A DNA stretch of 64,000 nt from Gammaproteobacteria bacterium (GTDB lineage Bacteria; Pseudomonadota; Gammaproteobacteria; SZUA-140): assembly GCA_020847075.1 (NCBI GenBank), contig JADLCS010000030.1, forward strand, positions 25,105 through 89,104, read 5' to 3'. Positions 9,880 through 58,930 of the stretch are shown piece after piece (position 1 is the stretch's first letter; every line of letters begins with the position of its first letter). The notes under the pieces were generated by a model. That model did no database searches, was not told the DNA's origin, and saw nothing but the letters and a program-made list of their open reading frames with translations. The position numbers and the translations under genes are program-made.

Positions 9880-9895
9880 TGCACGTTCCGAGCCA
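9880..9895 (-). promoter_or_regulatory. Sigma54 -24/-12 promoter for fliE-fliF...
   Basis: The minus strand reads TGGCTC-GGAAC-GTGCA with canonical GG/GC spacing, about 55 nt upstream of the fliE ATG and abutting the fleR stop. Confidence 0.65.
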
Positions 9896-9896
9896 T

Positions 9897-37220: not shown

Positions 37221-37296
<76 letters not shown>

Positions 37297-37461: not shown

Positions 37462-38667
37462 ATGGCGCTTTCAAATACTACAATTAAAAACGCCAGATCC
37501 ACAACCAAACCTTATAAACTCTCCGATGAAAGAGGGCTATATTTACTCGTTTCCACGACTGGGGGAAGGTTGTGGAGATTCGATTATAGATTTGGTGGTA
37601 AACGCAAAACGTTAGCATTCGGCTCCTATCCCGATATTTCACTCAAAGATGCAAGAGAAAAACGCGACGAGGCCAGGAAGCAACTTGCAAATAACATCGA
37701 TCCTAGCGCGATAAAAAAAACGCTTAGCGGGCCACTAAACGGTGAATCTTTTGAATCAGTAGCACGTGAGTGGTATCTCAAGAATTCACTAAATTGGGCG
37801 GACACTCACGCGAATAAAATCATCCGAAGGCTCGAAGCTGATGTATTTCCCTGGATTGGTACTCGACCAATGCGCGAAATCACTGCTTCTGAGTTGCTCA
37901 CAGTACTTCGCCGAATCGAATCACGAGGTGCATTAGAGACCGCACATAGAGTCCATCAGAATTGTGGCCAAGTATTTCGCTATGGCGTTGCCACTGGCCG
38001 TGCAGAGCGAGATCCATCTGGTGACTTGAAAGGCGCCCTAGCTCCATGGAAACCGAAACATTACCCCTCGATAACTGACCCCAAAGAGGTGGGAAAACTA
38101 CTGCGAGCAATTGATGAATATGAAGGGGGTATTATAGTTCGCTGCGCACTTCAGCTTGCCCCACTCTTGTTTGTCAGACCTGGTGAACTTCGGCGTGCTG
38201 AATGGCAGGAAATTGATTTCAGCTCATGTGAATGGAGAATTCCTGCCGAGAAGATGAAAGCACGCCAGAAGCATATCGTACCCCTATCAAATCAGGCTAT
38301 TGGTATTCTCAGGGAATTACATCCGGCAACGAAATATAGTCGGCGGGTATTTCCAAGTGTGCGATCTACGGATTCTTCGATGAGCGAAAACACCATTAAT
38401 GCAGCACTTCGCAGCCTTGGCTATGAAAAGGAGGTAATAACGGCTCATGGCTTTCGCAGTATGGCGTCAACATTGCTTCATGAACAAGGATGGTCCACTG
38501 ATGTGATTGAACGTCAGCTCGCTCATGCCGAGCGCAATAGCGTGAAAGCTGCGTATAACCGCGCTCAGCATTTACCTGAGAGACGAAAAATGATGCAAAG
38601 TTGGGCTGACTACTTAGATAAGCTGAAAAAAGGTGCAGAAGTTATTACATTGAGACAGAAGTCATAG
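37462..38667 (+). CDS. int: Tyrosine integrase, P4 type
   Basis: N-terminal arm-binding (DUF4102-like) block KPYKLSDERGLYLLVSTTGGRLWRFDYRFGGKRKTLAFGSYPDISLKDAREKR. Catalytic region has R...HGFRS...LAH...Y. The gene is adjacent to the tRNA. Confidence 0.93.
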   Translation: MALSNTTIKNARSTTKPYKLSDERGLYLLVSTTGGRLWRFDYRFGGKRKTLAFGSYPDISLKDAREKRDEARKQLANNIDPSAIKKTLSGPLNGESFESVAREWYLKNSLNWADTHANKIIRRLEADVFPWIGTRPMREITASELLTVLRRIESRGALETAHRVHQNCGQVFRYGVATGRAERDPSGDLKGALAPWKPKHYPSITDPKEVGKLLRAIDEYEGGIIVRCALQLAPLLFVRPGELRRAEWQEIDFSSCEWRIPAEKMKARQKHIVPLSNQAIGILRELHPATKYSRRVFPSVRSTDSSMSENTINAALRSLGYEKEVITAHGFRSMASTLLHEQGWSTDVIERQLAHAERNSVKAAYNRAQHLPERRKMMQSWADYLDKLKKGAEVITLRQKS

Positions 38668-39148: not shown

Positions 39149-39991
39149 CTAGAACTTCAACTTTAGCTCCTCTCCCATATCAGTAATAACCATTCCAATA
39201 CCAGAAGGCTTCATCCCTGGTATAACATCCATGCGGGCAAATGCTTTTTTCCCAGACGCTGAGATTACCTCGCCGGCTATATCGGCTATACTATCGCCCC
39301 TCGATATCAAGCGCCATTCCCCTCTATATTCCTCATCGTTAAGCACTAGTTGTAGTTCTCCTGATCGTTTCCCTAATTCGATTTTCATTGCTGATTTATA
39401 ATCACTGTTATCTGAATAAATAATTCCATCAACATATATGCCAGCAGCTTTCTTTGGACGTGATTTAATCTCTTGGATTACTGGCTTGGTAAGTCCGTAG
39501 TTGCCCTTTATCGTGTCAAAAAGCAGTTCGGAAGGTATCGCTTTTAATTCAGGATAGTCATCCTTGTAGTTCATGTACACAGCCACCAAGGAGCTTGAGG
39601 GAAAAAATGCCGGCAAGGATTGTCCCCCTGTTACTGTTGTATTACTGTGAACTGTTGATGTGTTTCCAAATTGGGTCACTGTTGCTGTAGTAGTAGCATA
39701 AGTGGGCATCTGAATGTTTGTACTATATCCGCCAGATTCGGCATTTGTGAAGGCAACATATTCATAATCGTTCTCAATGGCTAATTCAGCAGCCCTTAAT
39801 CGAGCAAAGTCATTTGCCCGCTGTCGATCTGTATAACCATTACCTTGAAAGTTTACATACGCAACATTATATGCAAGCCACCCTTCTGAATAACCTCCAC
39901 CTAATCCTGAAGTTTTATACGGCGTCGCACATCCGGAAAGAAAAAGAAGGAGAGATATGCATGCAATGTTAGAACCAATTTTTATTCTCAT
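39149..39991 (-). CDS. Lipoprotein of unknown function
   Basis: MRIKIGSNIACISLLLFLSGC carries a lipobox. The mature N-terminus ATPYKTSGLGGGYSEGWL...VNFQGNGYT...LRAAELA resembles a small lipoprotein family I can only vaguely place. The start was trimmed to the ATG at 39989-39991. Confidence 0.6.
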   Translation of the reverse strand: MRIKIGSNIACISLLLFLSGCATPYKTSGLGGGYSEGWLAYNVAYVNFQGNGYTDRQRANDFARLRAAELAIENDYEYVAFTNAESGGYSTNIQMPTYATTTATVTQFGNTSTVHSNTTVTGGQSLPAFFPSSSLVAVYMNYKDDYPELKAIPSELLFDTIKGNYGLTKPVIQEIKSRPKKAAGIYVDGIIYSDNSDYKSAMKIELGKRSGELQLVLNDEEYRGEWRLISRGDSIADIAGEVISASGKKAFARMDVIPGMKPSGIGMVITDMGEELKLKF

Positions 39992-40118
39992 GTTTACCGC
40001 CTTTATTTTTGTTTGGGTTGAATTCTTAATCATTAACTCCCAATTAAAATACTCCTCCTAGAATTAACATTTGCCTCTATACCCTTATGCCACTAATGGC
40101 GAATAACAGAATTTACCC

Positions 40119-42938
40119 TCAAACTGATGCATGGTTATAAACAATATCCCTAATCTGCGCTGGCTCATAAGCCACATCCCAGCACCATAAACCGAAACCT
40201 CCATTCTCATTCACACCCTTCACCCAAACGTCGAGAGCTGAGCGTTTGGCTCGGTTCTGCTCGGAGTCGACACCCTTAATCTCCAACACCAGCGTCTTTC
40301 CATTTGAAAGCCGAACTAGAAAATCTGGAATGAATCGCCGACGAGCACCGTTCCAGAGATAATAGATTTGAAATCCCAGATGATCGTTTTTGGCGTAGGC
40401 GGTAACTTGGTTGTTCTTTACGCTATCGAAAATATTTGCCGCGTACTGCTCCCAGGCGCTGTCGGCGATCATATGACTGATCTGTGACCGTTGCGTGGGA
40501 AGACAAGGCTTGGTGGTATACCAGGTCCGCATATAACGTGTGGAGCCGATGGGATTCTCTTGATCGAAAACAGGCTCGATCCGCTCCATGTTCTGCTCCT
40601 GCACGTGGCGCTGGAGATGCTGAACGATCAGATCGATATTCATGGACATCAGGATGCGTTTGCGCAATGGCTCCTGATGAAACAGGGTCGGTATGTTCAG
40701 TCTATCTGACTCGATGAACTGCTCCACCAGCTTGATGAGTTGGAATATCAAATATTCCCGTGTTCCGGTGAATCGGCCCTGCATCGCCGCATAGGCCTTG
40801 CGCGCGGCTTGAAACGTGAGTCGCTGCAGGCGAAACTCTTCCGGCAGCTTCTCCAAATCGATCACATGGATCTGATTCCAGTCGGTGGCACCGCCCAGGG
40901 CAGGCGCGATCTCGGCACTGATCGGGGTTTGCGCAGGATCGATCGTCAATGGCTCAACCTCGCCCCAGTAAACGGTCAACACCGGCCGGACGACAACATC
41001 AACCCGCAGGACGTTCGGCCAGCGTATCTCCAGCTCATTCCGCACAGGCAATGACTCAATCTGCGTGCTTGGCCGTGGCGGCGGCGGTGCCTCGCCGGCC
41101 TCGCCGACGTCCTGGAAGATAGAAAGCGGCACGCCGAAGACGTTGACGTATTCCGAGACAAACAATCCATCCTCATTGGTCTCGTACGAGACACGCCGCA
41201 AACCCCGTCCGATCACCTGCTCGCACAGTAGCTGCGAGGTGAAGGCGCGCAGCCCCATGATATGGGTAACGTTCTTGGCATCCCAACCCTCGGAAAGCAT
41301 CGCCACGGAAATCACGTTTTGCAGATCCTGCCCTGCGGCATCTCGCTTGCCGACATTGTCCACCAGATCGCGCAGCAGCTCCTCCTTTTTCAATCCGCGC
41401 AGTCGCTCCTTGCGGATCTCAGGGATGTTTGCCGCGTCTACGATCTGAGCCAATCTGGCCTCATACGCCTTGTCCGAAGCCGCCGTTGCGCCGACTTCGG
41501 CCTTTTCCAGCACCTTGGAATCGACGCGCAGGGTACGTGCGGGCGCATGCAATTCCGGCCAGTGGGCATCGCCCTGATTGAAGTAGTATTCTATGCGCGC
41601 CGCCGTCTCGGTCCGGTTGCACACGGTCAGCATAACCGGTGGAGATATGTGCCCCCGGTCTCGCCAGTCCTGCAGCGCCGCCCGCCAGTCCGCGCCCAGC
41701 AGCGTGTAGGCGTCCTGTACCAGTCTGGGCAACGCCTCGTGCGGTTCCGCGCCTCGCCGATTGAGGTCTTGGGCAACCTCGGGCTCACGGTAGATGTGAT
41801 ACAGCTTTGACCGTAGGGTGGCGGTATTGGGCAAGGCGTCGTCGCGCACAACCACACGCGGCGTTTTCACTAACCCCGCCTCAATGGCGTCGTTCAAGCC
41901 GAAATCCGACACGATCCAGTCGAACAGGCCTTCTTCTGTGCTCACCTTGCCGGTGGGCGCAAACGGCGTGGCGGAAAGGTCGAAACATCGCTGAATTCGG
42001 CGCGTCTTGTGGACCCGGTCCAGGCCTTCTATCCAGCGAGTGGCCTCGTCGAGATCCAGTCCCAGCTCTTCCGCCTGCTTCTTGCTGATCTTGACTTCCG
42101 CCGGCTTGCGGTACGCATGATGGGCCTCGTCATTGATGACAACGATGTCCTTCCACGCGGCGAGCTTACCCAGCACCCGGCGCGTAAAGGCCTCGTCGCT
42201 CTCCTTGCCCTTCTTGACCACCGACTTATTCTGGTCCTTCAGCGGCATTAGGGTGTGCCAGTTCTCGATCAGGATATCCATCTGATTGAGCTTCTGGCGC
42301 AAAGCCTCTGATGGGCACAGACAGAACAGATCATAGAAGTTATCCGGCTCGCCCGGATACAGCACCCGCAGCCGGTCCTTGACTGTCAATCCGGGCGCCA
42401 CGATCAATACGGCACGCGAAAAATCCTTGTTACGCTTCGGATAGGTGAGTGCATTCAGCACCTGCCAGGTGATGATCATCGCCATCAGCGTGGTCTTGCC
42501 CGAGCCGGTGGCCATTTTGTTACACAACCGTTCCCACGGCCCACCGTCGCCTGGGATGGCAATCCCCTGTTTGTATTGCGCCGCCGCCTCCACCCACCAG
42601 ATCAGCGTCTCAATAGCCTCGATCTGGCAGAAGTAGAACGGATACAGCCGTACCCCCTCTGCCCGGTCGTGCCAATGCTCAAGCAAGCTACGGGTGACTG
42701 AGGTAATGCCGGGATACTCCGCGGCCCGCCATTCATCAATGCGCGATCGGATCTCGTTGACTAAGGCCAGCGGCTCAGTGCGCAGGGTGTTGTTGCGTAC
42801 GTCGAAGATCTCATAGCCAGCGGATCGGCGGCCGGAAACAAGGCTAAGCGTGCCGTCGCGACGCTGCTCCCAGTGCTGTTCAGGCTTAGCGTAGGGCGAA
42901 TTGATGATAAGAGACTTCGGTGCAGTCATCGCCCGCAC
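40119..42938 (-). CDS. res: Type III restriction enzyme, Res subunit (SF2 helicase + nuclease)
   Basis: Motif I MATGSGKT, motif II VVINDEAHHAY (DEAH) and a later QxxGRGLR (EQVIGRGLRR). The C-terminal block IPDFLVRLSNGKTLVLEIKG is PD-(D/E)xK-like. Its ATG is 1 nt from the mod stop. Confidence 0.88.
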   Translation of the reverse strand: MRAMTAPKSLIINSPYAKPEQHWEQRRDGTLSLVSGRRSAGYEIFDVRNNTLRTEPLALVNEIRSRIDEWRAAEYPGITSVTRSLLEHWHDRAEGVRLYPFYFCQIEAIETLIWWVEAAAQYKQGIAIPGDGGPWERLCNKMATGSGKTTLMAMIITWQVLNALTYPKRNKDFSRAVLIVAPGLTVKDRLRVLYPGEPDNFYDLFCLCPSEALRQKLNQMDILIENWHTLMPLKDQNKSVVKKGKESDEAFTRRVLGKLAAWKDIVVINDEAHHAYRKPAEVKISKKQAEELGLDLDEATRWIEGLDRVHKTRRIQRCFDLSATPFAPTGKVSTEEGLFDWIVSDFGLNDAIEAGLVKTPRVVVRDDALPNTATLRSKLYHIYREPEVAQDLNRRGAEPHEALPRLVQDAYTLLGADWRAALQDWRDRGHISPPVMLTVCNRTETAARIEYYFNQGDAHWPELHAPARTLRVDSKVLEKAEVGATAASDKAYEARLAQIVDAANIPEIRKERLRGLKKEELLRDLVDNVGKRDAAGQDLQNVISVAMLSEGWDAKNVTHIMGLRAFTSQLLCEQVIGRGLRRVSYETNEDGLFVSEYVNVFGVPLSIFQDVGEAGEAPPPPRPSTQIESLPVRNELEIRWPNVLRVDVVVRPVLTVYWGEVEPLTIDPAQTPISAEIAPALGGATDWNQIHVIDLEKLPEEFRLQRLTFQAARKAYAAMQGRFTGTREYLIFQLIKLVEQFIESDRLNIPTLFHQEPLRKRILMSMNIDLIVQHLQRHVQEQNMERIEPVFDQENPIGSTRYMRTWYTTKPCLPTQRSQISHMIADSAWEQYAANIFDSVKNNQVTAYAKNDHLGFQIYYLWNGARRRFIPDFLVRLSNGKTLVLEIKGVDSEQNRAKRSALDVWVKGVNENGGFGLWCWDVAYEPAQIRDIVYNHASV

Positions 42939-42939
42939 C

Positions 42940-45900
42940 TCAAGTCAATGGAATGATCTTCAACGACTCGATCCCCCGATCATCGACTATCTTCACCGCA
43001 ACCTTGCGGTTTTCACCCGCCTCGAAGGGGACCGACTTGGTGCCGTGGAATTTTTCCAGCAAGCCCTCGTTCAGCTCGGCACGGATGTCCTTCTTGAGCT
43101 TCCCCCAACCCTCACCCTTGCCGGCCATGGGGAAGAACACCTGGCGCGGGAACAGCGAGCGCTCGTCGTAGTCGGTATCCAGCAACCACATGGCGATCTT
43201 GCCCTTGCCACCGGAGACCAGCTCGCCCTTGGCGGTGTCGAAGTAGTCGAAGCCGTGCACTTCCACCACATAGCGGCCGTCCTTCTGTTTGTGCACCTCA
43301 ACGTCCGGCTGTCCCATGAGCCAGAAGCTCTGGTTGCTGGTGCGGCCCTTCTTGAGGTCGTCGGTCAGCAGGTCAGCGTTCATCTTGGCCTTGAGCAGGG
43401 TCACACCCGGCCATTTGGTTTCGTCGATGTCCTTGGCCGCCTCCGGGTCGAACTCGAAGCTCGCGAAGATGATGAACTTCGGCGCTGGCCGCAGCTTCTC
43501 GGCTTCGTTCAGCGCCAACGCCACCTGCCGCTGCTCCAGAGCCGCGTGTTCGGGGCCGAAGCTCACCACCACACGCTCGCCAGTGTCGAGATGCCCGCTC
43601 ACGTGCAGGTGTGGCGAATCAGGCAAGGTTTCGAGGTCGGCGAACTTCAACATCTGCCCGCCCTTGCCGCGGATACCGGTTTTGATCAACTCGTCGCGCC
43701 ACGAATGCTGGCGCGCCGATTCGCCCGAGCGGGAGATGGCCACGTCCGCCTCTTGCGGTTGCTGCGCCTCGTCCAGCGCCAGCACCGTCGGGAAAGGAAC
43801 CGCCTCCACGGTAAACGGCCCGGTGATGCGCAGCTTGTTCTTGGAGACTGCCGGCTGGTCGTAGAGCGTTTCCTGGTCGGCGTGCGCGGCGATGGAGTCG
43901 TCCATCTTCTTCTGCATCGCCTTACGAGCAGTGTGGAAGGCGTCGAACGGTTTGCGCGTGGCTTCGGACCAATCAGCCGAGAAATCGAACGGCACTTCCC
44001 ATTCCTTCAGCTTCTGCTTTGCCGCCTTGTTCAACTCCGCTAGCGCCGCCTCAACCGTCGGATGCATGCGCTCATGGATTTCGTCGATTTCCGGATTATT
44101 GGCGATGGACTTGAGCGTGACGTGCGGCACTGTCTTGTAGATGAAGCCGCTCTTCAGGCCCTCGTTTGGATACTTGAGTTCGTAGTAGTCGTAGCTCGCG
44201 GTCATCAATCGCTGTTTTGCGAGCGTCACCGACACGCGCGACGTGTCGCAGGTGATCCAGCGCCGGCCCCACTTCTCAGCGACGAAGGCCGTTGTGCCGG
44301 AACCGCAAGTCGGGTCCAACACTAGATCGCCTGGGTCGGTGGTCATGAGTAAACAACGTTCGATAACCTTGGAAAGAGTCTGAACAACATAAACTCGCGC
44401 TTCACTGAATCCACTTGAAACTGTATCAGTCCAAACGTTTGTGTATGGCGACAATGGAAAATCGTTCAGGTAACTTACAAACTCCAGGGTGTTCGCAAAT
44501 GCAAGCAGACGGTTTGATCTAGCTGCCTTCTCTAAGCCCTGAACGGATGTCTTCCAGTGTTGACCCGAACCAGGGTGAAATTCGCGACCATAACACCCGA
44601 AAGCAACAGTTGATGTCGGGCTCGCTCCCGCCGATTTTATCGACGTATGTCGAAAAAGTTTTTCGGTCTCAGATAGCTCGACTATGGAATCATCTTTGGT
44701 AACCCTCGTGCGCCTTCCTGACGCCTCTTCTATCCAAATGTCCTGGCCTGCGAATGTCTTGCTGTCGAGCTTGTCAAACCATATTGGCCGAAACTTAACC
44801 TTAGGTCTGTCCTTTGCAAACCAGACAATGTTGTCATGAACAACTGAAAGAAGATCGCTTTGCTTCCAGCCAGTCTTTTGAAAAACGATTGTCCCGCAAT
44901 TATTTTCGGCGCCGAGTATCTCTTCACATAGTTCTCTTACATGGTGCACGTTCTCATCGGAAATCTGCACAAACACGCTCCCCGATTCGTGCAGCAGCTC
45001 CTTCGCCAACAGCAGCCGGTCGCGCAGGTAGGTGAGGTAGGAGTGGATGCCCAGCTCCCAGGTGTCACGGAAGGCCTTGATCATCTCCGGTTCCTGGGTC
45101 AGGTCTTCGTCCTTGCGGTCCTTCACGTCGCGCTTGTTGACGAAGGGCTGGAAGTTGGAACCGTACTTGATGCCGTAGGGCGGATCGATGTAGATCATCT
45201 GCACCTGCCCAGCCATGCTCTCCTTTTGGAGCAGCGAGTTCATCACCAGCAGCGAATCGCCCGCGATCAGCCGGTTGGTCCAGCCACGCTCGTGCTTGTA
45301 GAAGTCGATGGCGTCGCGCAGCGGCAGGTTCTCGAACGGCGCGGCGAAGAGGTCAGGCTGATGAGCTTTTTCGACGCCCTTACCCTTGCCTTCGTTCAGC
45401 CGCTTGCGGACGGCTGCCAGAATACTGGCCGGGTCGATGCGCTCGTGCACGTGCAGGGATACGGTGTCGATCTCGAAGCTGGTGCGCTCGGCTTTGCCGG
45501 TCCAGTTGAGATAGGGTGCGGAATGGCGCTTCAGTTCTTCCAGCGCCGCGCGCATGGCAGCCTTATCTCCATTCGCCAGCGCATCGTCGATCAACCTCTC
45601 GATCTGCGCACGGCTACTGTCGAACTGGAGAGCGGGATCGATGTGCGGATCATATTGCCAAACTGTCTGCGGCTCATCCGGATCGTTCTCCGGCCTGACC
45701 ATCCCGACCTCGGGATTGTTCTTGCGCTTGTCTTTGTGACGGTAACTTAATACGTCTGGGTTATCGCTCTTTCTTCCACCTGATGACGAATTCTTGGCGC
45801 TTCGCCTTGATCGACTCACCGCCTGCTCTGAAGGCGCAATTTGGCTCTCCAAGGAAAAATCATCGTCGCCCAATGGCACAGTGGATGTATCCTTGGACTT

Positions 45901-45954
45901 TCGGCCGGCAGATTTCGGGGTTCGGGGATTTATATTGTTTTTCTTCCGAGCCAT
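42940..45954 (-). CDS. mod: Type III-like N6-adenine/N4-cytosine DNA methyltransferase (Mod), oversized (about 1004 aa)
   Basis: Motif IV IYIDPPYGIKYG lies upstream of motif I VLDPTCGSGTTAFVAEKWGRRWI, the beta-class order typical of type III Mod. There is a basic low-complexity N-terminal extension and a long C-terminal extension. The start was set at the ATG at 45952-45954, preceded by AGGAGAAGCC. Confidence 0.88.
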   Translation of the reverse strand: MARKKNNINPRTPKSAGRKSKDTSTVPLGDDDFSLESQIAPSEQAVSRSRRSAKNSSSGGRKSDNPDVLSYRHKDKRKNNPEVGMVRPENDPDEPQTVWQYDPHIDPALQFDSSRAQIERLIDDALANGDKAAMRAALEELKRHSAPYLNWTGKAERTSFEIDTVSLHVHERIDPASILAAVRKRLNEGKGKGVEKAHQPDLFAAPFENLPLRDAIDFYKHERGWTNRLIAGDSLLVMNSLLQKESMAGQVQMIYIDPPYGIKYGSNFQPFVNKRDVKDRKDEDLTQEPEMIKAFRDTWELGIHSYLTYLRDRLLLAKELLHESGSVFVQISDENVHHVRELCEEILGAENNCGTIVFQKTGWKQSDLLSVVHDNIVWFAKDRPKVKFRPIWFDKLDSKTFAGQDIWIEEASGRRTRVTKDDSIVELSETEKLFRHTSIKSAGASPTSTVAFGCYGREFHPGSGQHWKTSVQGLEKAARSNRLLAFANTLEFVSYLNDFPLSPYTNVWTDTVSSGFSEARVYVVQTLSKVIERCLLMTTDPGDLVLDPTCGSGTTAFVAEKWGRRWITCDTSRVSVTLAKQRLMTASYDYYELKYPNEGLKSGFIYKTVPHVTLKSIANNPEIDEIHERMHPTVEAALAELNKAAKQKLKEWEVPFDFSADWSEATRKPFDAFHTARKAMQKKMDDSIAAHADQETLYDQPAVSKNKLRITGPFTVEAVPFPTVLALDEAQQPQEADVAISRSGESARQHSWRDELIKTGIRGKGGQMLKFADLETLPDSPHLHVSGHLDTGERVVVSFGPEHAALEQRQVALALNEAEKLRPAPKFIIFASFEFDPEAAKDIDETKWPGVTLLKAKMNADLLTDDLKKGRTSNQSFWLMGQPDVEVHKQKDGRYVVEVHGFDYFDTAKGELVSGGKGKIAMWLLDTDYDERSLFPRQVFFPMAGKGEGWGKLKKDIRAELNEGLLEKFHGTKSVPFEAGENRKVAVKIVDDRGIESLKIIPLT

Positions 45955-45962
45955 GGCTTCTC

Positions 45963-48143
45963 CTAATCCATCGACTCGTGCGCAAATATCGCGGTACGGA
46001 TGTTGCGCTGCGCCATGATGACTGGCCAATAAAATGGTGTACCGCGCCATCCTTGCTCTTCACGACCGTTCTGACGGATGAGCATCAAGATGGGAATATT
46101 CAAAGCCATTCTTTTGGCGACTTCGCCCTCGGTACGGGTAGTATCAGGTGCATCTGAATATACTGCGTGACTTCCCGCCGATACTTTACGGCTGAGATTA
46201 CGATCCTTTCTTACGAGACAGAGTACGCGGTTACGTTTTCCAGCATCCGGCGATGCTGAACTGAGGTATTGCAGCGCGGAGCGTGCGGCGTCCCAATCGA
46301 AGGTATATCCCTCGTCTTCTTGCATTTCCAGCGTCGGCTCTATCTTCAGCAACATATCTACCGCTACTGATAATGGAATCTCGAAGGGATCGTCGAATCC
46401 TGCGGGCGACCTATGACCTTCCAGCAGCCGATCTATTTGCTCGATGACCGGCTGAACCCGGGTTGTATAATCAGTCTGAAATCCAATCGGTAGTATGCGC
46501 TTATAAGATCGCAAGGTGGTGGTGCGGGATACCAGAATTTTATTCGGGCTGCATGGGATGACCCGGCCGCTGTCATCTCGCTGAATAAACACGATAGGCT
46601 GCTCTGCGTTCTGCTCTATCGCCTGTCTTAAGGCAACATCGCTTTCGTGCATTCGTCGCATAGCATCATAGATGGTCGGCTCGGTATAGAACCGGGTGAC
46701 TGTGAGATCTTCTATCGGACGGAAACCGAACATGCGGGAATGTTGTAATACGGTGTCTTGCTGATAGACTTGCGGCCGGCGACCGTAGAAAAACCCGATA
46801 AGGTTGGCAATCGTAACGCCTCTGTCGAGTATTTGACCGCCGATGAATATATTCAGAGGTGTGCGAAGTCGTAACTGACCTTCTGTATCCAACAGCTCCT
46901 CAACTTGCTTCTCCGAATTGACCTTGGTGATCATCAACCAACCATCATCAAGAGCCCTGAAGGCCTCATTGATCACCTCATCTCGGCTCGGCAGATAGTG
47001 CCCCATAACATTTATGGATGCGGAAAGATCGTCATAAGCGGACGACAAGAGATTACGCAATAGACCCGGAGAATTCTTTACTGCATCGGTAAGATAGTCA
47101 CGTAACGTTTGAACGACTTGTTCCTGCCAAGCATGGGCAGCTTTTCCAGCCTCAGTATGTACAAGAAAACTGAATTTCTTGAGCGGTTTGTTAGTACGCT
47201 GGTCTTGTAAGCGCCGAATACATCCACCCACAATGAAATTGCACAGGGCGCTTCGGATTGAATAAATGGCGTCACTCGTCAAACAATCCTCAGTCCTGAA
47301 TCGGCGCCGGTCTTGCTGCTTGAGAATGGATAGCTCCATCAGGGTTACCGGCTCGTATACAAATGAGGCAACAGAATTTTCCTCCTGGCTATGCCGGAAG
47401 TAATAATCGCTTCCAACATAATCCTTATGTACGGGTACTAACTCCGTAAATGAGGGACGCACCGGCTTAAACTCAGTTCCGCTGATGACTAGATTATCCG
47501 GCTGTAGGTAGAGCGAATACGGCGTGGCCGTTACTTGAAGGAAGGCAGATGAATTAATTGTTTTTCTGAGATCATCGATCTGTCTCGCCGTAACATTGGC
47601 CGTAACACCTTTCTCTGAATTGCTTCGATAACCAATGCTTGCGTAGTCAGCCTCATCATCGATTATTAATACACGCTTCCCGGCCAACATTGGGTATGTC
47701 TCGCGAAACACTGCCGCGAGTCTGTTCATGTTGTCTTGCTGTTTCTTGGCGATGAATATGAGCTTCTGATTTAGTTCGTATGGTGTAAGTCCAGACGGTA
47801 AAGTCATGATGTCGTAAATTTGCAGTAGATCCTTTGCATGAAAAGGTGCAAACTCAGTTGTAATACGTTGGTATGTCTGCCTGGTTAACGCCTTGGTGCC
47901 TTTTGTCAGAACTATCGCTATATCGAAGCTATTGTCGAACGCCAGGGCTATTATCCCGAGAAAGGTCTTAGTTTTCCCGGACTGAATTTTTCCAAGCAAC
48001 ATGCCTGGTCGAGCCGCGCTGGTCTCTACGGTTAATAAACGATTAACCGCTCTCTCAATACAGCTTTTATCTTCAATAGAGTATCGATTGCTTCTTGACG
48101 TGAAGTCCGGGTAGAACTGGCCAGCAAGGTTGAGGCTACCCAT
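45963..48143 (-). CDS. Z1-domain protein (P-loop/SF2-like NTPase + Z1 domain)
   Basis: Walker A GKIQSGKTKT and a DEAD-like box VLIIDDEADYAS. The block GGQILDRGVTIANLIGFFYGRRPQVYQQDTVLQHSRMFGFR matches the Z1 hallmark as I remember it (..LSRGLT.EGL...YDTL.QMGRWFGYR). SD AGGAGGG lies 5 nt before the ATG. Confidence 0.75.
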   Translation of the reverse strand: MGSLNLAGQFYPDFTSRSNRYSIEDKSCIERAVNRLLTVETSAARPGMLLGKIQSGKTKTFLGIIALAFDNSFDIAIVLTKGTKALTRQTYQRITTEFAPFHAKDLLQIYDIMTLPSGLTPYELNQKLIFIAKKQQDNMNRLAAVFRETYPMLAGKRVLIIDDEADYASIGYRSNSEKGVTANVTARQIDDLRKTINSSAFLQVTATPYSLYLQPDNLVISGTEFKPVRPSFTELVPVHKDYVGSDYYFRHSQEENSVASFVYEPVTLMELSILKQQDRRRFRTEDCLTSDAIYSIRSALCNFIVGGCIRRLQDQRTNKPLKKFSFLVHTEAGKAAHAWQEQVVQTLRDYLTDAVKNSPGLLRNLLSSAYDDLSASINVMGHYLPSRDEVINEAFRALDDGWLMITKVNSEKQVEELLDTEGQLRLRTPLNIFIGGQILDRGVTIANLIGFFYGRRPQVYQQDTVLQHSRMFGFRPIEDLTVTRFYTEPTIYDAMRRMHESDVALRQAIEQNAEQPIVFIQRDDSGRVIPCSPNKILVSRTTTLRSYKRILPIGFQTDYTTRVQPVIEQIDRLLEGHRSPAGFDDPFEIPLSVAVDMLLKIEPTLEMQEDEGYTFDWDAARSALQYLSSASPDAGKRNRVLCLVRKDRNLSRKVSAGSHAVYSDAPDTTRTEGEVAKRMALNIPILMLIRQNGREEQGWRGTPFYWPVIMAQRNIRTAIFAHESMD

Positions 48144-48362: not shown

Positions 48363-49031
48363 ATGTGCGGCCGGTACACACTCACTCCTTCGCTCGATGT
48401 AATACTTGAGCACTATGCGCTTGAGGATGTGATTGAGTCCTACAGGCCCAGGTACAATATTGCCCCTTCCCAAGAAGTCCTCGTCGTACGAAGTACAGTG
48501 GAGCCGCAGCACCGAATCCTAATCCCAATGCACTGGGGCCTGATCCCGCACTGGGCCAAAGACAGGAAAATCGGTTATCGCATGATCAACGCGGTCGGCG
48601 AAACACTCACGGATAAACCGTCCTACCGTACGCCCTTCAAGAAGCGCCGTTGCCTGATACCTGCTTCCGGATTCTACGAGTGGAAGGTCGTTGGCGAGAA
48701 GGTGAAGCAGCCCTACTACATCCGCATCAGCGGGCGTGAGGTGTTCTCGTTCGCGGGGCTGTGGGAGCACTGGGAAGGTGATGGCGGTATCTATTCCTGC
48801 ACCATCATCACGACCGAGGCGAACGATACCGCCCGATCCATCCACAACCGCATGCCGGCGATCCTCGACCCCAAGGATTACGACCTCTGGCTTAACCCCT
48901 CCGCACCACAGGACGCACTCCAATCCCTGCTCGTGCCCTACACCGCCCACCCGATGGAAACGTACCCCGTTTCCAATGCCGTCAACACGCCGAAGAACGA
49001 CGATCCCCGCCTGACCGAGCCCCTGCACTAG
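48363..49031 (+). CDS. SOS-response-associated peptidase (SRAP/YedK family), abasic-site processing protein
   Basis: Starts MCGRY (catalytic Cys2) and carries RYNIAPSQ, HWGLIPHWAKD and IPASGFYEWK, the conserved SRAP signature blocks. Confidence 0.9.
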   Translation: MCGRYTLTPSLDVILEHYALEDVIESYRPRYNIAPSQEVLVVRSTVEPQHRILIPMHWGLIPHWAKDRKIGYRMINAVGETLTDKPSYRTPFKKRRCLIPASGFYEWKVVGEKVKQPYYIRISGREVFSFAGLWEHWEGDGGIYSCTIITTEANDTARSIHNRMPAILDPKDYDLWLNPSAPQDALQSLLVPYTAHPMETYPVSNAVNTPKNDDPRLTEPLH

Positions 49032-49151
49032 CTTCAAGTCTTTGAATTAGCAGGCTGATATTTGCCCGCTTGAATGTTCTCTTTTTGTTCTCTATCGTGG
49101 ACATCAAGCGAACGTCCGTTCGCAGTCCCGAACAACCCCGATCGGTGCCGT

Positions 49152-50387
49152 ATGCAAGACCACTGCCCTGTCATTTGGCCCCGCGCCATTCTTCACGTGG
49201 ACATGAACGCCTTCTTCGCCTCGATCGAGCAGCGGGACTTCCCCCGGCTCCGGGGCAAGCCCGTGGCCGTGACCAATGGGTTAACCGGAACGTGCATCAT
49301 CACTTCGAGCTACGAGGCCCGGGCCTTTGGGATTAAGACCGGGATGCGGATCAGGGAGGCACTCCAGAAGTGCCCCAAGCTCATCCAGCGCCCGGCCCGA
49401 CCGGAAGTCTATGCCCGGATCTCCACCGGCATCATGAAGGCCCTGGAGGCCATCACCCCGGATCTTGAGATCTTCTCCTGTGACGAAGCCTTCTTGGATG
49501 TGACCCGGTGCCAGAAGCTCCACGGGACCCCAGTCCGGAGGGGGAAGATGGTCAAGCAGATCGTATTCCGTGCTTCAGGCATCCTGTGCTCGGTCGGGAT
49601 CGCCGGGGACAAGACCACGGCCAAGTTTGCCGCGAAGCTGCAGAAGCCAAACGGCCTCATCGTGATTCCCCCTTGGGAAGCGGCAGACCGCCTCAAGGAT
49701 GTCCCCGTCACTCAGCTCTGTGGGATCGCCAATGGCATCGGGAATTTCCTCGCCCAGCACGGCGTCCATGTCTGTGGGGACATGCACAAGCTCCCGATCA
49801 GCATCCTCGGCCAGCGGTTCGGGAATCTCGGCCGGCGGATCTGGCTGATGTGCCAGGGGGCGGACCCGGACAAGATCCACACCGATGTCCCGGCGCCCAA
49901 GTCGATGGGGCACGGGAAAGTGTTACCGCCGAACACTCAGGACCGCCAAACCCTCGTCACCTACCTCACCCACATGAGCGAGAAGGTCGGGCAGCGGCTG
50001 CGGAAGAACAAAATGGAAGGTCAGGAGTTTCTGATCGGGTTGCGTACACTCAACGGCTGGATCGGGGACCGCTTCAGAACGAAAGTCCCCACCAGCGACA
50101 GCCGGCCGATCCTTCAGCTTAGTCAGTTCGTGTTAACCAATCTGTGGAAGGGCGAAGGCATCTTCCAAGTGCAGATCACCGTGCTGGATCCGAAGCCGAG
50201 GCGGCAGCAGATGGACATGTTTGAGGCGCAGGATGAGGTGCGGACGCAGCTCAACGAGGTAATGGACCGGGTCAACGAAAAGTACGGTGAGTTTACACTC
50301 GCGCCCGGTTACCTGATCAACCGGTCAGAAATGCCTAACGTCATCGCCCCAGCATGGAAACCATTCGGACATCGGCAGACGATATGA
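49152..50387 (+). CDS. dinB: Y-family DNA polymerase (DinB/Pol IV-like)
   Basis: ILHVDMNAFFASIEQRD (catalytic Asp) and SCDEAFLDVT (catalytic D-E), followed by little-finger-type C-terminal sequence. The start was trimmed to MQDHCPV (ATG at 49152). Confidence 0.85.
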   Translation: MQDHCPVIWPRAILHVDMNAFFASIEQRDFPRLRGKPVAVTNGLTGTCIITSSYEARAFGIKTGMRIREALQKCPKLIQRPARPEVYARISTGIMKALEAITPDLEIFSCDEAFLDVTRCQKLHGTPVRRGKMVKQIVFRASGILCSVGIAGDKTTAKFAAKLQKPNGLIVIPPWEAADRLKDVPVTQLCGIANGIGNFLAQHGVHVCGDMHKLPISILGQRFGNLGRRIWLMCQGADPDKIHTDVPAPKSMGHGKVLPPNTQDRQTLVTYLTHMSEKVGQRLRKNKMEGQEFLIGLRTLNGWIGDRFRTKVPTSDSRPILQLSQFVLTNLWKGEGIFQVQITVLDPKPRRQQMDMFEAQDEVRTQLNEVMDRVNEKYGEFTLAPGYLINRSEMPNVIAPAWKPFGHRQTI

Positions 50388-50701: not shown

Positions 50702-52867
50702 ATGAACCAAGCAACCCGAACTGAAGAGGAAGTCTTCGAAGATCTGGCGGCGCTCTGCAGCCGCCCTGGCTACATCCACGCCTTAGCGGCCTTGTCCTTC
50801 CGGGACAATGTGATCCTCTATAACGGTAACATGAAAGAGGAAGACCTTAGTAGGTTATCTTCTCCTGAACGTCTAAATCGATTGGAATTTAACACTTTGA
50901 TCGGCCTGATGATCAAGGCTGAAATCGATTGGTCACTTCCTACACCAAAAGTTTTACAGGGATATTTAGATGATACTGACCGCCTTCTGATCGAATTACA
51001 CGAATGTCTGTCCAGAGAATTATTTTCAGGGTTATCTAAAGAAAAGATCAAGACCGGTTCAATAAATCCATTTGAACGGGGGAAAGCGCTCCGAGAGCCA
51101 ATCTTCTACGGTGGTGAATCTGCATATAACTTTCAATACCTTGATTTATCAATTCGGAAATATGCAGCCGATGCCCCATGGCTGTACAAAAATCTAGGCT
51201 TTAACATCGACGAAGCTACGCGTATCGCAAAGACGATTGATGAACTCTATGAAGAAAAATTAGAAGCAGTTCGAGAACTGATGCGAATGCTACATCCAGA
51301 CGAATGGACAATGCTTCCGCTATTTACTTTTAACGTGGATGAGATTGCGGCGAAACATGGTTACGCCATCGATCTAGTAAAGCGGATTCTTAGCGCGTTT
51401 ACAATATCTACCGACGAACGAAATCCAGAATTCAGAACATTACAGGACTTCAATATTGCTACAGCGAAGCCATTTCTGAGGACGCCAGATGGTGAGTTAG
51501 TATTGTTGCAATCTTATTCGTTCGCTGAGGCAATCTACGACGCCCCCTTTTATTGGATGGCTCTGGACAAGGATTATCTCCCAGTACATTCCAAGAACCG
51601 AGGTGACTTTACCGAAAATTTTGTGGCGGAGCGCCTCCGCCTGGTATTTGGTCCTGATCACGTCTATCTAAATGTCAACATCATTGAGAGCAATAATAAT
51701 CGGGTCTCTGAGATTGATGTCCTGGTCATCTGGGGTAATCGAATCATCATCACACAAGCTAAGTCTAAACGACTAACCCTGGGAGCGCGGAAGGGTAATG
51801 ACCAAATGATCCGCGACGATTTCAAACATGCAGTACAAGCGGCTTACGAACAGGGGGCCATTTGCGCCAAGTGTCTGCTCGACAAAAGTTACAAGGTGGC
51901 CACTCCGGATGGAAACGATATTAAATTGCCGCAGAAGATAAAAGAAGTCTATCTTTTTTGTGTCGTAAGTGACCACTATCCGGCGTTAAGTTTTCAATCT
52001 CGACAGTTTCTACAAGTAGTTAACATTGATCAGGTACAAGCGCCGTTAGTGATGGATGTATTTGCCATTGATGCAATGACAGAAATGCTACAGTCACCAT
52101 TACAGTTCCTGAGCTACTTAAACCGCCGGGCCAACTACAGCGATAAAATCATGGCTTCATTGGAACTGGTAATTCTTGGTTATCACCTCAAATACAACCT
52201 CTGGCTAGATCCTGAGTATGACTTCGTACAGCTTGGTGATGATTTTTCAACCGCACTTGATATTGCAATGATGGCTCGACGTAACAATATAAAAGGAGTT
52301 GATACGCCAGACGGAGTTTTAACTCGTTGCAGAAATACGACGATTGGTCAGGTAATCAAACAGATTGAGGCACGACCGGAGCCTGCAACTATAGACCTCG
52401 GCTTTATGCTTCTTAGGATGAGTGAACAAGCAATTATTGATCTTAGCCGAGTCGTAAACCATCTGGCAGCTCGCACACGAGCTGATGGTAAGGTTCATGA
52501 TGCATCTTTCAGTTTCAAGGAAGACTCAGGAATCACTTTCCACTGTACTGATGAGCCAGTTTATAATGCAGGCCCTAGGTTGGAAGCCTACTGTAATCTA
52601 CGCAAATACAGAGAGAAAGCTAGAGAGTGGTTTGGCCTCTGCATGAGTTCGAAAGGTCCAAAAGTAAGGTTTGGTGTATCATTGGTATATCCATGGGCAC
52701 ATGACGCTGAGATGGATGTGAGATCAAAGTCAATGCAGTCACCGATGCCTATTGATCAGGGCCTCCGAGCTATACGTACAAGTCGGTGCAGGAGAAAGAA
52801 GATTGGTCGGAATGACCCCTGTCCATGCGGTAGTGGACGTAAGTACAAGAAATGTTGTCTTAACTAA
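50702..52867 (+). CDS. Large orphan protein with PD-(D/E)xK/NERD-like core and C-terminal SEC-C metal-binding motif
   Basis: 721 aa. The core GDFTENFVAERL...VSEIDVLVIWGNRIIITQAKSKRL fits an E...D...(Q/E)xK nuclease-fold signature. The C-terminus GRNDPCPCGSGRKYKKCC is a canonical SEC-C motif. I recognise no other domains. Confidence 0.6.
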   Translation: MNQATRTEEEVFEDLAALCSRPGYIHALAALSFRDNVILYNGNMKEEDLSRLSSPERLNRLEFNTLIGLMIKAEIDWSLPTPKVLQGYLDDTDRLLIELHECLSRELFSGLSKEKIKTGSINPFERGKALREPIFYGGESAYNFQYLDLSIRKYAADAPWLYKNLGFNIDEATRIAKTIDELYEEKLEAVRELMRMLHPDEWTMLPLFTFNVDEIAAKHGYAIDLVKRILSAFTISTDERNPEFRTLQDFNIATAKPFLRTPDGELVLLQSYSFAEAIYDAPFYWMALDKDYLPVHSKNRGDFTENFVAERLRLVFGPDHVYLNVNIIESNNNRVSEIDVLVIWGNRIIITQAKSKRLTLGARKGNDQMIRDDFKHAVQAAYEQGAICAKCLLDKSYKVATPDGNDIKLPQKIKEVYLFCVVSDHYPALSFQSRQFLQVVNIDQVQAPLVMDVFAIDAMTEMLQSPLQFLSYLNRRANYSDKIMASLELVILGYHLKYNLWLDPEYDFVQLGDDFSTALDIAMMARRNNIKGVDTPDGVLTRCRNTTIGQVIKQIEARPEPATIDLGFMLLRMSEQAIIDLSRVVNHLAARTRADGKVHDASFSFKEDSGITFHCTDEPVYNAGPRLEAYCNLRKYREKAREWFGLCMSSKGPKVRFGVSLVYPWAHDAEMDVRSKSMQSPMPIDQGLRAIRTSRCRRKKIGRNDPCPCGSGRKYKKCCLN

Positions 52868-56056: not shown

Positions 56057-58318
56057 TTAAGTCGTACTTTGTACCGACGACGGCCCTTCATCCATTACGT
56101 CATTCCAATCAATATTCGCGTTCAAATACTTTTCGAAAGCCTCACGGCACTTCGCTTGAGGGCCAAACACTAAATTTCGTGTCCGCTTTTCCTCTTGTCC
56201 GACGGCCTTAAAAACGATTGATTTAGTCCTGCGTATCACAGTACGGCATTGTTTGACTTGCTCTCCAAGAACTTCATAAATCTTTTTTGCCCACAGTGAC
56301 TCTTCCATTGGTGAATACTCTTTATTGGTTTTCGAGTGGGCTTCATAGTCCTTATAAGCCTCGCGCTTTTCGATAATGAGCCCGTCTTCCTCCCAATCTG
56401 TTACCCCCGCATTGATGAATTCATGCCGACTACTGCCCATGCTCCCGCTTGCAAGGCACGTGTATAGCCACTTTTCGGGTCCTTTAAGACTCCGAATTTT
56501 CTGCTCGACTAATGCATTTGTCTTTGGGACGTTTCGTACGTTGTATCCAGAAAGGTCGTAATTCAACATATCATGTAAGAACGCTTCGATTCCTCCATTA
56601 TCGATCTCCTCATATAGCGCGTCGAAGTATTTAGTATCACCTTGGTGCTTACCTGAAACATCATATATTGCGAATCGTCTTTCATCTGGTCCAGCAGGAA
56701 CGACCCAGTCTTCATTGCTCGCCATTAGAACGCTGAGCATGTTGCGGCATTGAAATGAATCAAAACCTTTCGGTTCAACCATAAATACTGGCTCAGTGAT
56801 CAGAGCTTTAATTATGCTTTCATTCTGCTTATCTCCCGCGTAATAGGCTTCATCGGCGAAAATAAACACGCTATCTCTGAGATGTACGTTGAAGTTTCCC
56901 GTTAAGTGACGAGTATGAGATATATGTAAACCATGTTGGCCGAAAAACCTGCGGATAACATGACCTAAAGTGCCTTTTCCAACACCACGTTTTCCGCGCA
57001 GTACCAAAGCTACTTCGCCCTGCTCCCAGGGTTTTTGTACCAGTCTTGCAACCCATCCCAGAAGATAATTGAATGACTGCTCGTTACAACTACTCATAAC
57101 CTCTTTTAAGTGGTATCTAAGCAGATCCCAACTGCCTGCCTTTGGTTCAATAGCCAAACCTTTCCACAAATTTAATACTCCGGGTGGCGCTACCTTCCCC
57201 GGGCCAAAAATCACTCCTGAAGTGTATTCATGCCTTCTCGGGTGCCCAAACCAAGCATCAGCTTGATTTTTCATTATTGGTTCACCCTTCTTGCTCATAC
57301 CAACCGTTACCAGTTTGTTCTGATATAGCTTACGGAGATCCTCAAATTTATGCCGAATAAAATAATCTCGTTCCAATATCTCATCGTGTGCAGGGCTGAA
57401 TACCAAGGTTTTTCCATTCTCATTAACAACCATGTACTTGCGATTCATCTCGATTACGTACTCTGGGAGGGTCTCCTCCTGCCCCAGACATAGCCAATCA
57501 GATACCTTCTGTGTTATTTGCTGACCTATGATTTCTGAAATACGCGGCAAGCCGGTTATTGGCTCGCCTCTTCCTAATTTCATACGAGTATGCTTAACAC
57601 ATGCTACTCGGTCGGTAACTTCATCATCTCTCGCTGCCTCAGCTACTGCACTTATGAAGGCTTCAGCATCTTCATCTTTAAATCCAGATCGAAGAAGAGC
57701 ACCTGATAGTGCGAGTGCCGTTTCGTGACGTCTACCCTCTTTAGGCCAGTGGCGCGCTAGTGCTGTCGCCGCAGCTATCTTTCCCAATCTTGATAGGAGA
57801 TCATTCGGTTCTATTGAAACTGGTGAAATGTCCTCCTCCCACTCAATATACTCACCACTCGTATGAACTGAACCTGGGAAAACGGTCTGCGCGCCCGTAG
57901 AACGAAGTTCTAGGAGCATCTTTCCGTCAGGCTCAGCGTATTTTTTTGTCCCGATTTCGCAAATGTACAACCAGTGCGTCCGTGGGTTACTTCTACGTCC
58001 GAATACACTCGTTTGTGGCAGGAAAACTGGCGCGATCCGGGCGGCTTCGACCGTATCAAAATCGACATCAACCAATCCCCCAGACGGTTCGCCGAGCAGA
58101 ACCCCTATATTCAGGTCCTGCCTATCGAAATATATATCCGCCTGCCCCTCATTGATGCGCAGATCAGTCCATCTCTGGATTCGTGGTCCCTTTTCTTTAT
58201 GAGGTATCGGGATGGGCGACCAACCGCGACTGATATAGTTCAACGCGCGAGATAATGGCCTGATGCTGCCCAATGTATGTGGAACTATGCTCTCGATAAC
58301 AGCAGACATATTGTTCAC
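56057..58318 (-). CDS. Replication protein: N-terminal bifunctional primase-polymerase (Prim-Pol) + C-terminal SF3/D5-like helicase
   Basis: The N-terminus GWSPIPIPHKEKGP...NIGVLLGEPSGGLVDVDFD is Prim-Pol-like. Walker A VLRGKRGVGKGTLG with the downstream block VFIFADEA is typical of P4/D5-family (DUF5906-like) NTPases. 753 aa and intact. Confidence 0.8.
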   Translation of the reverse strand: MNNMSAVIESIVPHTLGSIRPLSRALNYISRGWSPIPIPHKEKGPRIQRWTDLRINEGQADIYFDRQDLNIGVLLGEPSGGLVDVDFDTVEAARIAPVFLPQTSVFGRRSNPRTHWLYICEIGTKKYAEPDGKMLLELRSTGAQTVFPGSVHTSGEYIEWEEDISPVSIEPNDLLSRLGKIAAATALARHWPKEGRRHETALALSGALLRSGFKDEDAEAFISAVAEAARDDEVTDRVACVKHTRMKLGRGEPITGLPRISEIIGQQITQKVSDWLCLGQEETLPEYVIEMNRKYMVVNENGKTLVFSPAHDEILERDYFIRHKFEDLRKLYQNKLVTVGMSKKGEPIMKNQADAWFGHPRRHEYTSGVIFGPGKVAPPGVLNLWKGLAIEPKAGSWDLLRYHLKEVMSSCNEQSFNYLLGWVARLVQKPWEQGEVALVLRGKRGVGKGTLGHVIRRFFGQHGLHISHTRHLTGNFNVHLRDSVFIFADEAYYAGDKQNESIIKALITEPVFMVEPKGFDSFQCRNMLSVLMASNEDWVVPAGPDERRFAIYDVSGKHQGDTKYFDALYEEIDNGGIEAFLHDMLNYDLSGYNVRNVPKTNALVEQKIRSLKGPEKWLYTCLASGSMGSSRHEFINAGVTDWEEDGLIIEKREAYKDYEAHSKTNKEYSPMEESLWAKKIYEVLGEQVKQCRTVIRRTKSIVFKAVGQEEKRTRNLVFGPQAKCREAFEKYLNANIDWNDVMDEGPSSVQSTT

Positions 58319-58908: not shown

Positions 58909-58930
58909 TTCGATCCTCCTCCGCCCACCA
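58909..58930 (+). repeat. attR core (partial tRNA-Ala 3' end)
   Basis: TTCGATCCTCCTCCGCCCACCA has 16 + 6 nt identical to 37274-37296, with a 1-nt deletion at the U70 position. G+C rises sharply immediately to the right. Confidence 0.85.

Follow-up and report, generated by a model that had tools for sequence, protein, structure and literature searches.

The question raised by the stretch of DNA analysed here (64,000 nucleotides (nt) of a Gammaproteobacteria bacterium, contig JADLCS010000030.1; the whole stretch is called the window below, and positions are counted from its first letter) is whether a gene for a Z1-domain ATPase, standing at the head of a type III-like mod-res operon, works with the methyltransferase and nuclease encoded behind it or merely travels with them. 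From profile matches, motifs and gene order, the locus appears to be a type III-like restriction-modification (R-M) operon of the BPTD_3080 family, to the 5' end of which a DEAD-Z1 ATPase gene has been added. The Z1-Mod-Res triad is real and recurrent. No description of it was found in the literature searched, in keeping with the initial annotation of this DNA, which knew of no characterised pairing of Z1 with a type III Mod/Res.

The minus strand of 40119–48143 is filled by three long open reading frames (ORFs), tightly packed in the order Z1, mod, res and coding for a Z1 protein of 726 amino acids (aa), a Mod of 1004 aa and a Res of 939 aa; with homologues in the hundreds and strong profile matches for each, the three are real genes, not chance ORFs. 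Direct reading of the sequence confirmed the ORF coordinates and the minus-strand packing as one unit, both of which had been noted initially (Table 1). The Z1 stop codon (TAG, 45965–45963) is followed after 8 nt by the mod start codon (ATG, 45954–45952), and GGAG lies 5 nt 5' of this ATG, exactly the gap with embedded Shine-Dalgarno sequence that had been claimed. The mechanical ORF list also gives an upstream ATG for mod at 46050; the start at 45954 was preferred because the mod starts of two related loci (L003 and L086) lie 8–9 nt past the Z1 stop. At the second junction the mod stop codon (TGA, 42942–42940) is followed after 1 nt by the codon 42938–42936; the 1-nt gap was described correctly, and the codon, which had been given as ATG, reads GTG. 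An in-frame ATG at 42929, 10 nt past the mod stop and with GAGG in front, could be an equally good or better res start; either is possible (939 aa from GTG 42938, 936 aa from ATG 42929). A promoter and terminator scan inside the three-gene unit gave counts equal to the shuffle expectation and was uninformative.

The Z1 protein was matched by Pfam Z1 (PF10593) over residues 295–515 with 83.7 bits against a cut-off of 25 (1.8e-23), which upholds the original call; residues 42–209 gave a weak Pfam ResIII match, and the REBASE-derived PADLOC model Helicase_II ('Type II helicase domain protein') covered residues 43–709 (8e-52). Alignment to the Neisseria gonorrhoeae H protein (H.NgoAVII) ran from residue 24/26 to 714/715 (BLASTP, 2e-32; hhalign, 99.8%) at 23–26% identity, so that the C-terminal domain was followed to residue 715 of 726, including its terminal GW.G...P motif. 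The H-subunit (N-protein) of CglI, NgoAVII and BceSIV is a DEAD-Z1-C protein and a translocase on double-stranded DNA (dsDNA), and H.CglI hydrolyses ATP only when it is bound to the R-subunit at unmethylated sites (PMC4267653, PMC5861437); the initial annotation treated Z1 proteins as merely predicted R-M components and is out of date on this point, as the H-subunit of CglI/NgoAVII had already been characterised biochemically. The features listed for the DEAD-Z1 motor by Toliusis et al. (PMC5861437) are a QSGKT-type Walker A, DEAD, a loop after motif II, an H/H pair and a QxxR motif VI, and their counterparts in the island protein are QSGKT 54–58 (Walker A with Gln replacing the first Gly), DDEAD 162–166 (DEAD being Walker B), a loop after motif II, H329/H337 and QHSR 467–470. 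The DThhQxuRhFG motif of the Z1 domain, taken from Iyer et al. 2008 (PMC2292703), was found as QQDTVLQHSRMFG. The catalytic and family-specific residues, H329 and H337 included, were invariant in 23 of 23 homologues. By these alignments and motifs the island Z1 protein is assigned to the DEAD-Z1 motor family as a full-length homologue of the H-subunit.

Structural searches added little: the solved H.CglI C-domain was not matched in a profile search with the Z1 protein, a PDB sequence search with the Z1 profile gave nothing significant, and the AlphaFold2 model built from a 23-sequence alignment was weak (predicted local distance difference test score 65, Z1 core <50); Foldseek on this poor model returned superfamily 2 (SF2) helicases only, a generic fold, and the C-terminal domain was left unresolved by the model. 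Pfam, PADLOC and Foldseek revealed no effector domain in the 726-aa protein, whether nuclease, toxin or other. Identity within the family is 62–84% across phyla, and this conservation suggests purifying selection on Z1; an identical protein is on record (MCC6301921.1, from a gammaproteobacterial metagenome-assembled genome), and a phage collection contained almost no close homologues. One homologue (P0060, 925 aa, 67% identical) has an N-terminal extension of about 200 aa with an HNH-like motif (CAVC...H...N...CANCH) and is possibly a nuclease-motor fusion, provided that the annotated start is real; another (P0098) has an N-terminal extension of no recognised type. These two were the sole fusions seen, and Rosetta-stone fusions of Z1 to Mod or Res were not among them.

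Mod was matched almost throughout by the REBASE-derived PADLOC model MTase_III (PDLC03632, 5e-174, model positions 60–981 of 983) and by Pfam N6_N4_Mtase (1.5e-30). DPPY 257 (motif IV) precedes GSGTT 551 (motif I), the target-recognition region lies between them, and GSGTT is followed by about 400 aa of conserved extension towards the C-terminus; the nearest PDB relatives are type III Mods (6K0W_B, 7e-16; 4ZCF_A, the EcoP15I Mod, 9.5e-15). The type III-like assignment made initially is therefore retained, and Mod is taken, on these matches, to be a β-class N6-adenine methyltransferase related to type III Mods. Its description as oversized is not: Mod matches the 983-position model end to end, so that a length of 1004 aa is normal for the family, whose other members have 930–1145 aa with or without Z1. 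Within mod, between DPPY and GSGTT, the G+C content falls to about 0.47–0.50 at 44400–45000, in the presumed target-recognition region, which is consistent with exchange of a specificity domain.

Res gave 1149 bits with the NCBIfam equivalog NF046055 ('BPTD_3080 family restriction endonuclease', cut-off 800), residues 8–935 being aligned to model positions 2–968 of 970, and 1.6e-08 with Pfam ResIII. Its motifs are GSGKT 145, DEAH 270, SATP, QVIGRGLR 574 and PD...EIK 871–888; in agreement with the helicase-nuclease first proposed, it is predicted to be an SF2 helicase-like ATPase with a C-terminal PD-ExK nuclease, of the BPTD_3080 family. A PDB sequence search with Res gave no match, and no experimental paper on the BPTD_3080 family was found in the literature. 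The classical (EcoP15I-like) type III Res family was considered and rejected, the similarity being marginal (equivalog NF012027, 17.3 bits against a cut-off of 564; PADLOC REase_III, a 46-residue stretch only).

For the recurrence of the arrangement, Z1 homologues were surveyed in one genome per species (80 loci returned), and R-M neighbours of Z1 within 8 kb were detected with the seeds of this analysis. Mod and Res homologues adjoin Z1 in 15 of the 80 loci, and in 12 of these the order Z1→Mod→Res is kept on one strand (L003, L008, L009, L012, L015, L016, L017, L018, L032, L047, L081 and L086); L032 shows Z1-Mod only, its contig ending before any res. One or two genes are inserted in the arrangement in L014 and L095. 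Eight contig look-ups of close Z1 homologues gave the triad in four cases, three of them new (L165, L168 and L170), a standalone Z1 in three and an unclear result in one. Order and orientation are thus the same in at least 15 other loci of at least six bacterial phyla, with hosts among the Gammaproteobacteria, Nitrospira, Bacteroidota, Acidobacteriota, Verrucomicrobiota and Binatia, and the recurrent Z1-Mod/Res linkage for which the initial annotation had proposed a survey is established; among testable loci with a Z1 of at least 57% identity the triad is present in about 11 of 20.

The spacing recurs as well. Between the Z1 stop and the mod start there are 8–13 nt in L003, L008, L009, L016, L047, L081 and L086 and about 8–12 nt in L165, L168 and L170; a candidate mod start overlaps the Z1 stop in L012, and the spacers of L015, L017 and L018 measure 43–75 nt. 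Where a gene on the same strand starts within about 25 nt downstream of a Z1 homologue, it is mod in six cases of nine. In the neighbour-joining tree the Mod/Res-linked proteins make up about half of the large clade that contains the island Z1. The second clade, mostly from Firmicutes, is accompanied by type I genes (Z1 right after hsdR), by SNF2 with DUF4391, a methylase and Res, by Eco57I-like genes, or shows no linkage. Over the whole survey, a methylase and/or a helicase-type R gene lies within 8 kb in 30 of the 80 Z1 loci, with every labelled gene on the Z1 strand, and cytosine-C5 (C5) methylases accompany Z1 in three or four further loci; partners other than Mod/Res comprise type I, SNF2/DUF4391 and DUF6079 + methylase systems, Z1 being co-oriented at the operon ends.

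Some loci of the survey carry additional ATPase or Z1 genes. L012 (5155–18341) and L017 (5467–18735) have a co-oriented run of five genes, for a 556–671-aa protein, an SNF2-family helicase, Z1, Mod and Res, in which the SNF2 gene ends 7–39 nt before Z1; judged by gene content, these runs would be a form of the Z1-Mod-Res operon with three ATPases. SNF2 genes are also found near Z1 in L021, L026, L027, L029, L040 and L048. In L171 (10746–18178) a second Z1-domain protein, of 872 aa, is encoded in an MZA-like operon with DUF4420, DUF6339 and Vsr, on the strand opposite to an adjacent standalone homologue of the 725-aa Z1 family (8001–10178).

Co-variation was compared across 15 triads as Spearman correlation of distances. 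Mod and Res distances were correlated at 0.73, those of Z1 and either Mod or Res weakly (0.23–0.29), and Z1 was more conserved (mean identity 62% versus 48–50% for Mod/Res). The decoupling is seen in single loci: the Z1 proteins of L165, L168 and L015 are 69–73% identical to the island Z1 and their Res just 36–38% to the island Res; L047 has a Res of 65% and a Z1 of only 50% identity. Order and spacing are nevertheless kept across three Mod/Res subfamilies (Res identity about 32–38%). By these comparisons Z1 genes and Mod/Res pairs appear to have recombined several times, ending in the same order with a short spacer; that both were kept despite the weak correlation of Z1 points to repeated selection for the arrangement.

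The base composition of the operon is mosaic: G+C at third codon positions (GC3) is 0.51 for Z1, 0.72 for Mod and 0.71 for Res, and the G+C counts of 25, 41 and 42 of 60 quoted earlier are exact. The recent assembly that had been concluded from them was not borne out, because the lower G+C of Z1 than of Mod is general (seven of seven triads checked) and the same triad is shared with L003 and L086 at 74–84% protein identity.

Type III systems work by a division of labour: recognition and methylation of a short asymmetric site, and the loading of Res, fall to Mod, while Res uses ATP and its PD-ExK nuclease to cut unmodified DNA. A Z1 protein co-expressed with Mod/Res would work alongside them on one DNA, as an auxiliary translocase driven by ATP on dsDNA, and would supply processive long-range movement; such movement could raise the efficiency of cleavage, relax limits on site orientation, or sustain restriction when the core enzyme is inhibited. 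Functional cooperation of Z1 with Mod/Res was given a probability of about 0.5. It is favoured because the arrangement is conserved across phyla and Mod/Res subfamilies, which is rare for mere island neighbours, and because the characterised motors of the family need a partner nuclease, the island Z1 has no effector domain of its own and one homologue seems to be fused to an HNH-like motif. Since Z1 was reshuffled among diverged Mod/Res subfamilies, cooperation is more likely to proceed via the DNA or a conserved docking surface than via a co-evolved interface.

Several observations weigh against cooperation or favour the principal alternative, in which Z1 is a self-contained defence or DNA-surveillance ATPase that hitch-hikes with R-M cassettes and is co-transcribed for convenience; the locus would then hold two systems, an ordinary type III-like R-M system and an orphan H-like ATPase. 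Res already contains complete ATPase and nuclease motifs. About 50 of the 80 Z1 homologues have no methylase or helicase-nuclease within 8 kb that the seeds could detect, and standalone copies are common and conserved: in Halobacillus (L064–L082) Z1 homologues of 44–47% identity stand in a synteny block with ATP-grasp, DUF1232, GGDEF/EAL and MerR-methyltransferase genes, in which no R-M genes were detected, and look vertically inherited, a pattern that speaks for a role without neighbouring R-M genes in this lineage; the Dehalococcoidia copies (L010–L020) are syntenic and apparently vertically inherited, and L167 and L169 are further standalone cases.

Seen from the other side, most Mod/Res pairs have no Z1. 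Among 80 metagenome loci whose Res is 70–83% identical, the sequence upstream of mod extends for at least 2.3 kb in 33, and Z1 was found in two or three of these 33 (upstream in L086 and L095; downstream of res in L085); the 40 plasmid records that contain a BPTD_3080 Res gave no close Z1 homologue (0/40). Rhizobium etli pRsp8C3b and Agrobacterium pusense pAt1, for example, carry a plain mod-res pair without Z1, with a long Mod and 73% (Res) and 59–62% (Mod) identity to the island pair. The Mod/Res core is thus taken to work without Z1 in most genomes, Z1 being an optional, recurrent addition; by the same self-sufficiency it would be an optional enhancer rather than a core subunit. The Z1 tree is incongruent with the Mod-Res trees, and the G+C of Z1 is distinct from that of Mod/Res in every triad checked. 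Tight embedding alone is no proof of dependence, because apparently independent modules (AAA_21 + DUF4276, DUF1828 + DUF5131) nest in Mod-Res operons.

Inserts at the mod/res junction were of three kinds, all in loci without Z1: DUF1828 + DUF5131 together with an ORF of 152 aa; an AAA_21/AAA_15 ATPase accompanied by a small DUF4276-like gene; and a 623-aa Schlafen AlbA_2/HATPase_c_4 protein (L088, L090, L091, L118, L126; L097, L110, L116, L128, L132, L151, L162; L121, L131, L158). It seems that accessory or nested defence genes repeatedly settle at this junction.

An independent Z1 is possible on this evidence, at well under even odds. Against it, the 726-aa protein showed no effector domain, its characterised relatives have no activity unless a partner nuclease is present (PMC4267653), a search downstream of the standalone copies gave no conserved small partner gene, and the recurrence of order, orientation and a spacing of about 8–13 nt across phyla and subfamilies is unusual for systems that are merely co-located. 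Of the composite system proposed initially, the linkage stands; its composite status is still inferred, because Z1 is optional for BPTD_3080-type R-M and often standalone.

A guard or back-up role is a further alternative: Mod/Res would hold Z1 inactive, and a phage anti-restriction protein would free it as a second line of defence with no part in cleavage. PrrC, embedded in the EcoprrI type I operon, follows this logic. The attachment of Z1 to varied methylation-based ATP-dependent systems (type I, type III-like, SNF2/DUF4391, DUF6079 + methylase) is in favour of such a back-up, the weak co-evolution of Z1 with Mod/Res fits an add-on, and other ATPase modules fill accessory slots of the same operons; it is nonetheless improbable, as no toxic effector domain was identified in Z1, an inhibitor-sensing domain is unsupported, and what biochemistry has shown for the family is translocation in the service of a nuclease and not abortive infection (PMC5861437). 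That Z1 is an inactive remnant of a CglI-type system, left with no current role after loss of the PLD/B3 nuclease and C5 methylase, would agree with the failure to find an NgoFVII-type R gene or a C5 methylase in the window and is very improbable, since the ORF is of full length, its catalytic and family residues are intact and invariant in 23 homologues, and a family so highly conserved (62–84% across phyla) recurs in the triad in many lineages.

Beyond the cooperation of Z1 with Mod/Res at this locus, the clade of about 725-aa DEAD-Z1 proteins may be a general plug-in second motor for ATP-dependent, methylation-based immunity (BPTD_3080 type III-like, type I, SNF2/DUF4391 and BREX-related systems), a generalisation that is offered tentatively and is rather doubtful. 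If true, it would mean two-motor restriction complexes, in which a processive translocase is added to a 'switch-and-slide' or looping enzyme, with a changed range of cleavable DNA architectures (single sites, direct repeats) or with resistance of restriction to phage inhibitors. ATP-triggered one-dimensional sliding is the mode of restriction for which type III enzymes are the textbook case, and CglI-type enzymes are a textbook case of restriction by a processive DEAD-Z1 translocase; the repeated joining of a type III-like Mod/Res with a DEAD-Z1 protein suggests that the two modes of long-range communication can be combined. The contribution of the accessory motor is cleanly testable in the three-gene system, because natural two-gene relatives without Z1 serve as controls. 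Should Z1 be independent, a widespread orphan H-like ATPase with a stand-alone role would be defined.

The operon is carried by an island of 21.6 kb (about 37274–58930) integrated at tRNA-Ala, with a G+C content of 0.50 against 0.65–0.67 in the flanks and a climb from 0.40 to 0.60 at the right attachment site (58909). The P4-like context that had been proposed was confirmed by the tRNA gene, the P4-type integrase, the Prim-Pol/DUF5906 protein, the 16-bp tRNA repeat and the G+C contrast (Table 1).

Table 1. Coordinates of the three-gene operon and of the features that delimit its host island.
Feature	Position in window	Strand	Basis
Z1 gene, 726 aa, DEAD-Z1-C helicase-like ATPase (predicted), homologue of H-subunit (CglI/NgoAVII)	45963..48143	-	profiles, BLASTP, hhalign, motifs
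Z1/mod spacer, 8 nt, contains GGAG ribosome-binding site	45955..45962	-	sequence reading
mod, 1004 aa, β-class N6-adenine methyltransferase (predicted), long type III Mod family	42940..45954	-	PADLOC, Pfam, PDB relatives
res, SF2 helicase-like ATPase + C-terminal PD-ExK nuclease (predicted)	40119..42938	-	NCBIfam, Pfam, motifs
tRNA-Ala(CGC), island integration site (attL)	37221..37296	+	ARAGORN
Tyrosine integrase, P4-type domain set	37462..38667	+	Pfam Arm-DNA-bind_3, Phage_int_M, Phage_integrase
Prim-Pol/DUF5906 replication protein, near far end of island	56057..58318	-	Pfam
attR, partial copy of tRNA-Ala 3' end, right island end	58909..58930	+	16-bp exact match TTCGATCCTCCTCCGC

Other island genes: a SRAP peptidase and a Y-family polymerase (48363–50387) are the divergent neighbours of the Z1 gene, with a Mod/Res-like GC3 of 0.75–0.79; SRAP, ImuA, Y-family polymerase and error-prone polymerase genes also lie within 8 kb of a Mod/Res pair on a Rhizobium etli plasmid (L001, 14983–20660), which may be coincidence or a co-travelling mutagenesis cassette. 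An ORF of 294 aa (39149–40033, minus strand; G+C 0.41), 85 nt downstream of res, gave no Pfam or PADLOC match, and a 721-aa NERD-domain protein with a C-terminal SEC-C motif (50702–52867, plus strand) is further island cargo. PADLOC on the remaining island genes gave nothing useful.

Compared with known systems, the Z1 protein is closest to the H-subunit of CglI/NgoAVII, with which it shares the DEAD RecA domain and the Z1 RecA-like domain, followed by a C-terminal domain of putative homology, the alignment to the N. gonorrhoeae protein running end to end; shared as well are the Q-for-G Walker A, DEAD, the H/H pair, the short QxxR motif VI and membership of an R-M operon. The island protein is about 100 aa longer, and its C-terminal domain gave no sequence match to the solved H.CglI C-domain. 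The partners differ: those of the known H-subunits are a motor-less PLD + B3 nuclease and a C5 cytosine methylase, as verified for the N. gonorrhoeae locus (L163: C5 methylase, NgoFVII-type PLD + B3 nuclease, Z1 protein), whereas those of the island Z1 are an adenine Mod and a Res with its own SF2 ATPase and PD-ExK nuclease. A tblastn search of the whole window with the N. gonorrhoeae R and M proteins gave nothing below E = 0.1, and a CglI/NgoAVII-type system as a whole was rejected, the window containing neither the PLD/B3 nuclease nor the C5 methylase.

MZA (MzaC) and the MORC-linked Z1 helicases of Iyer et al. 2008 (PMC2292703) share with the island protein the Z1 domain with its DThhQxuRhFG motif. 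An MZA system was rejected: the MzaC equivalog NF041933 gave 60 bits against a cut-off of 1500, and a GHKL/MutL partner was not found among the scanned island proteins; the island genes scanned contained no MutL/MORC GHKL ATPase, AIPR or cytosine methylase.

Classical type III systems (EcoP15I/EcoP1I) have the same order, mod then res, a β-class adenine Mod, and a Res with SF2 motifs and PD-ExK; the island Mod exceeds theirs by about 350 aa and has a conserved C-terminal extension, the island Res is only marginally similar, and the island operon has a third ATPase gene. The BPTD_3080 pairs of pRsp8C3b and pAt1 are alike in the mod-res layout and the long Mod and differ in having no Z1.

MANTIS/Gao_RL (BREX-related type 2) was rejected as an identity of the locus, as DUF499, DUF3870 and the PLD-helicase effector were not found in the three proteins or their neighbours; neither these nor the scanned neighbours showed a DUF499/BrxC-type AAA+ ATPase, DUF3870 or a PLD nuclease. 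In plan, the island operon resembles MANTIS/Gao_RL, BREX and DISARM, which likewise combine a specificity-setting methyltransferase and a helicase-nuclease effector with a second ATPase (bioRxiv 10.64898/2026.09.23.753747). Unlike in MANTIS and BREX, the second ATPase of the island is an SF2 DEAD-Z1 protein, and the two-ATPase triad would extend the picture given by BREX, DISARM and MANTIS, that methylation-based defences are often multi-ATPase systems.

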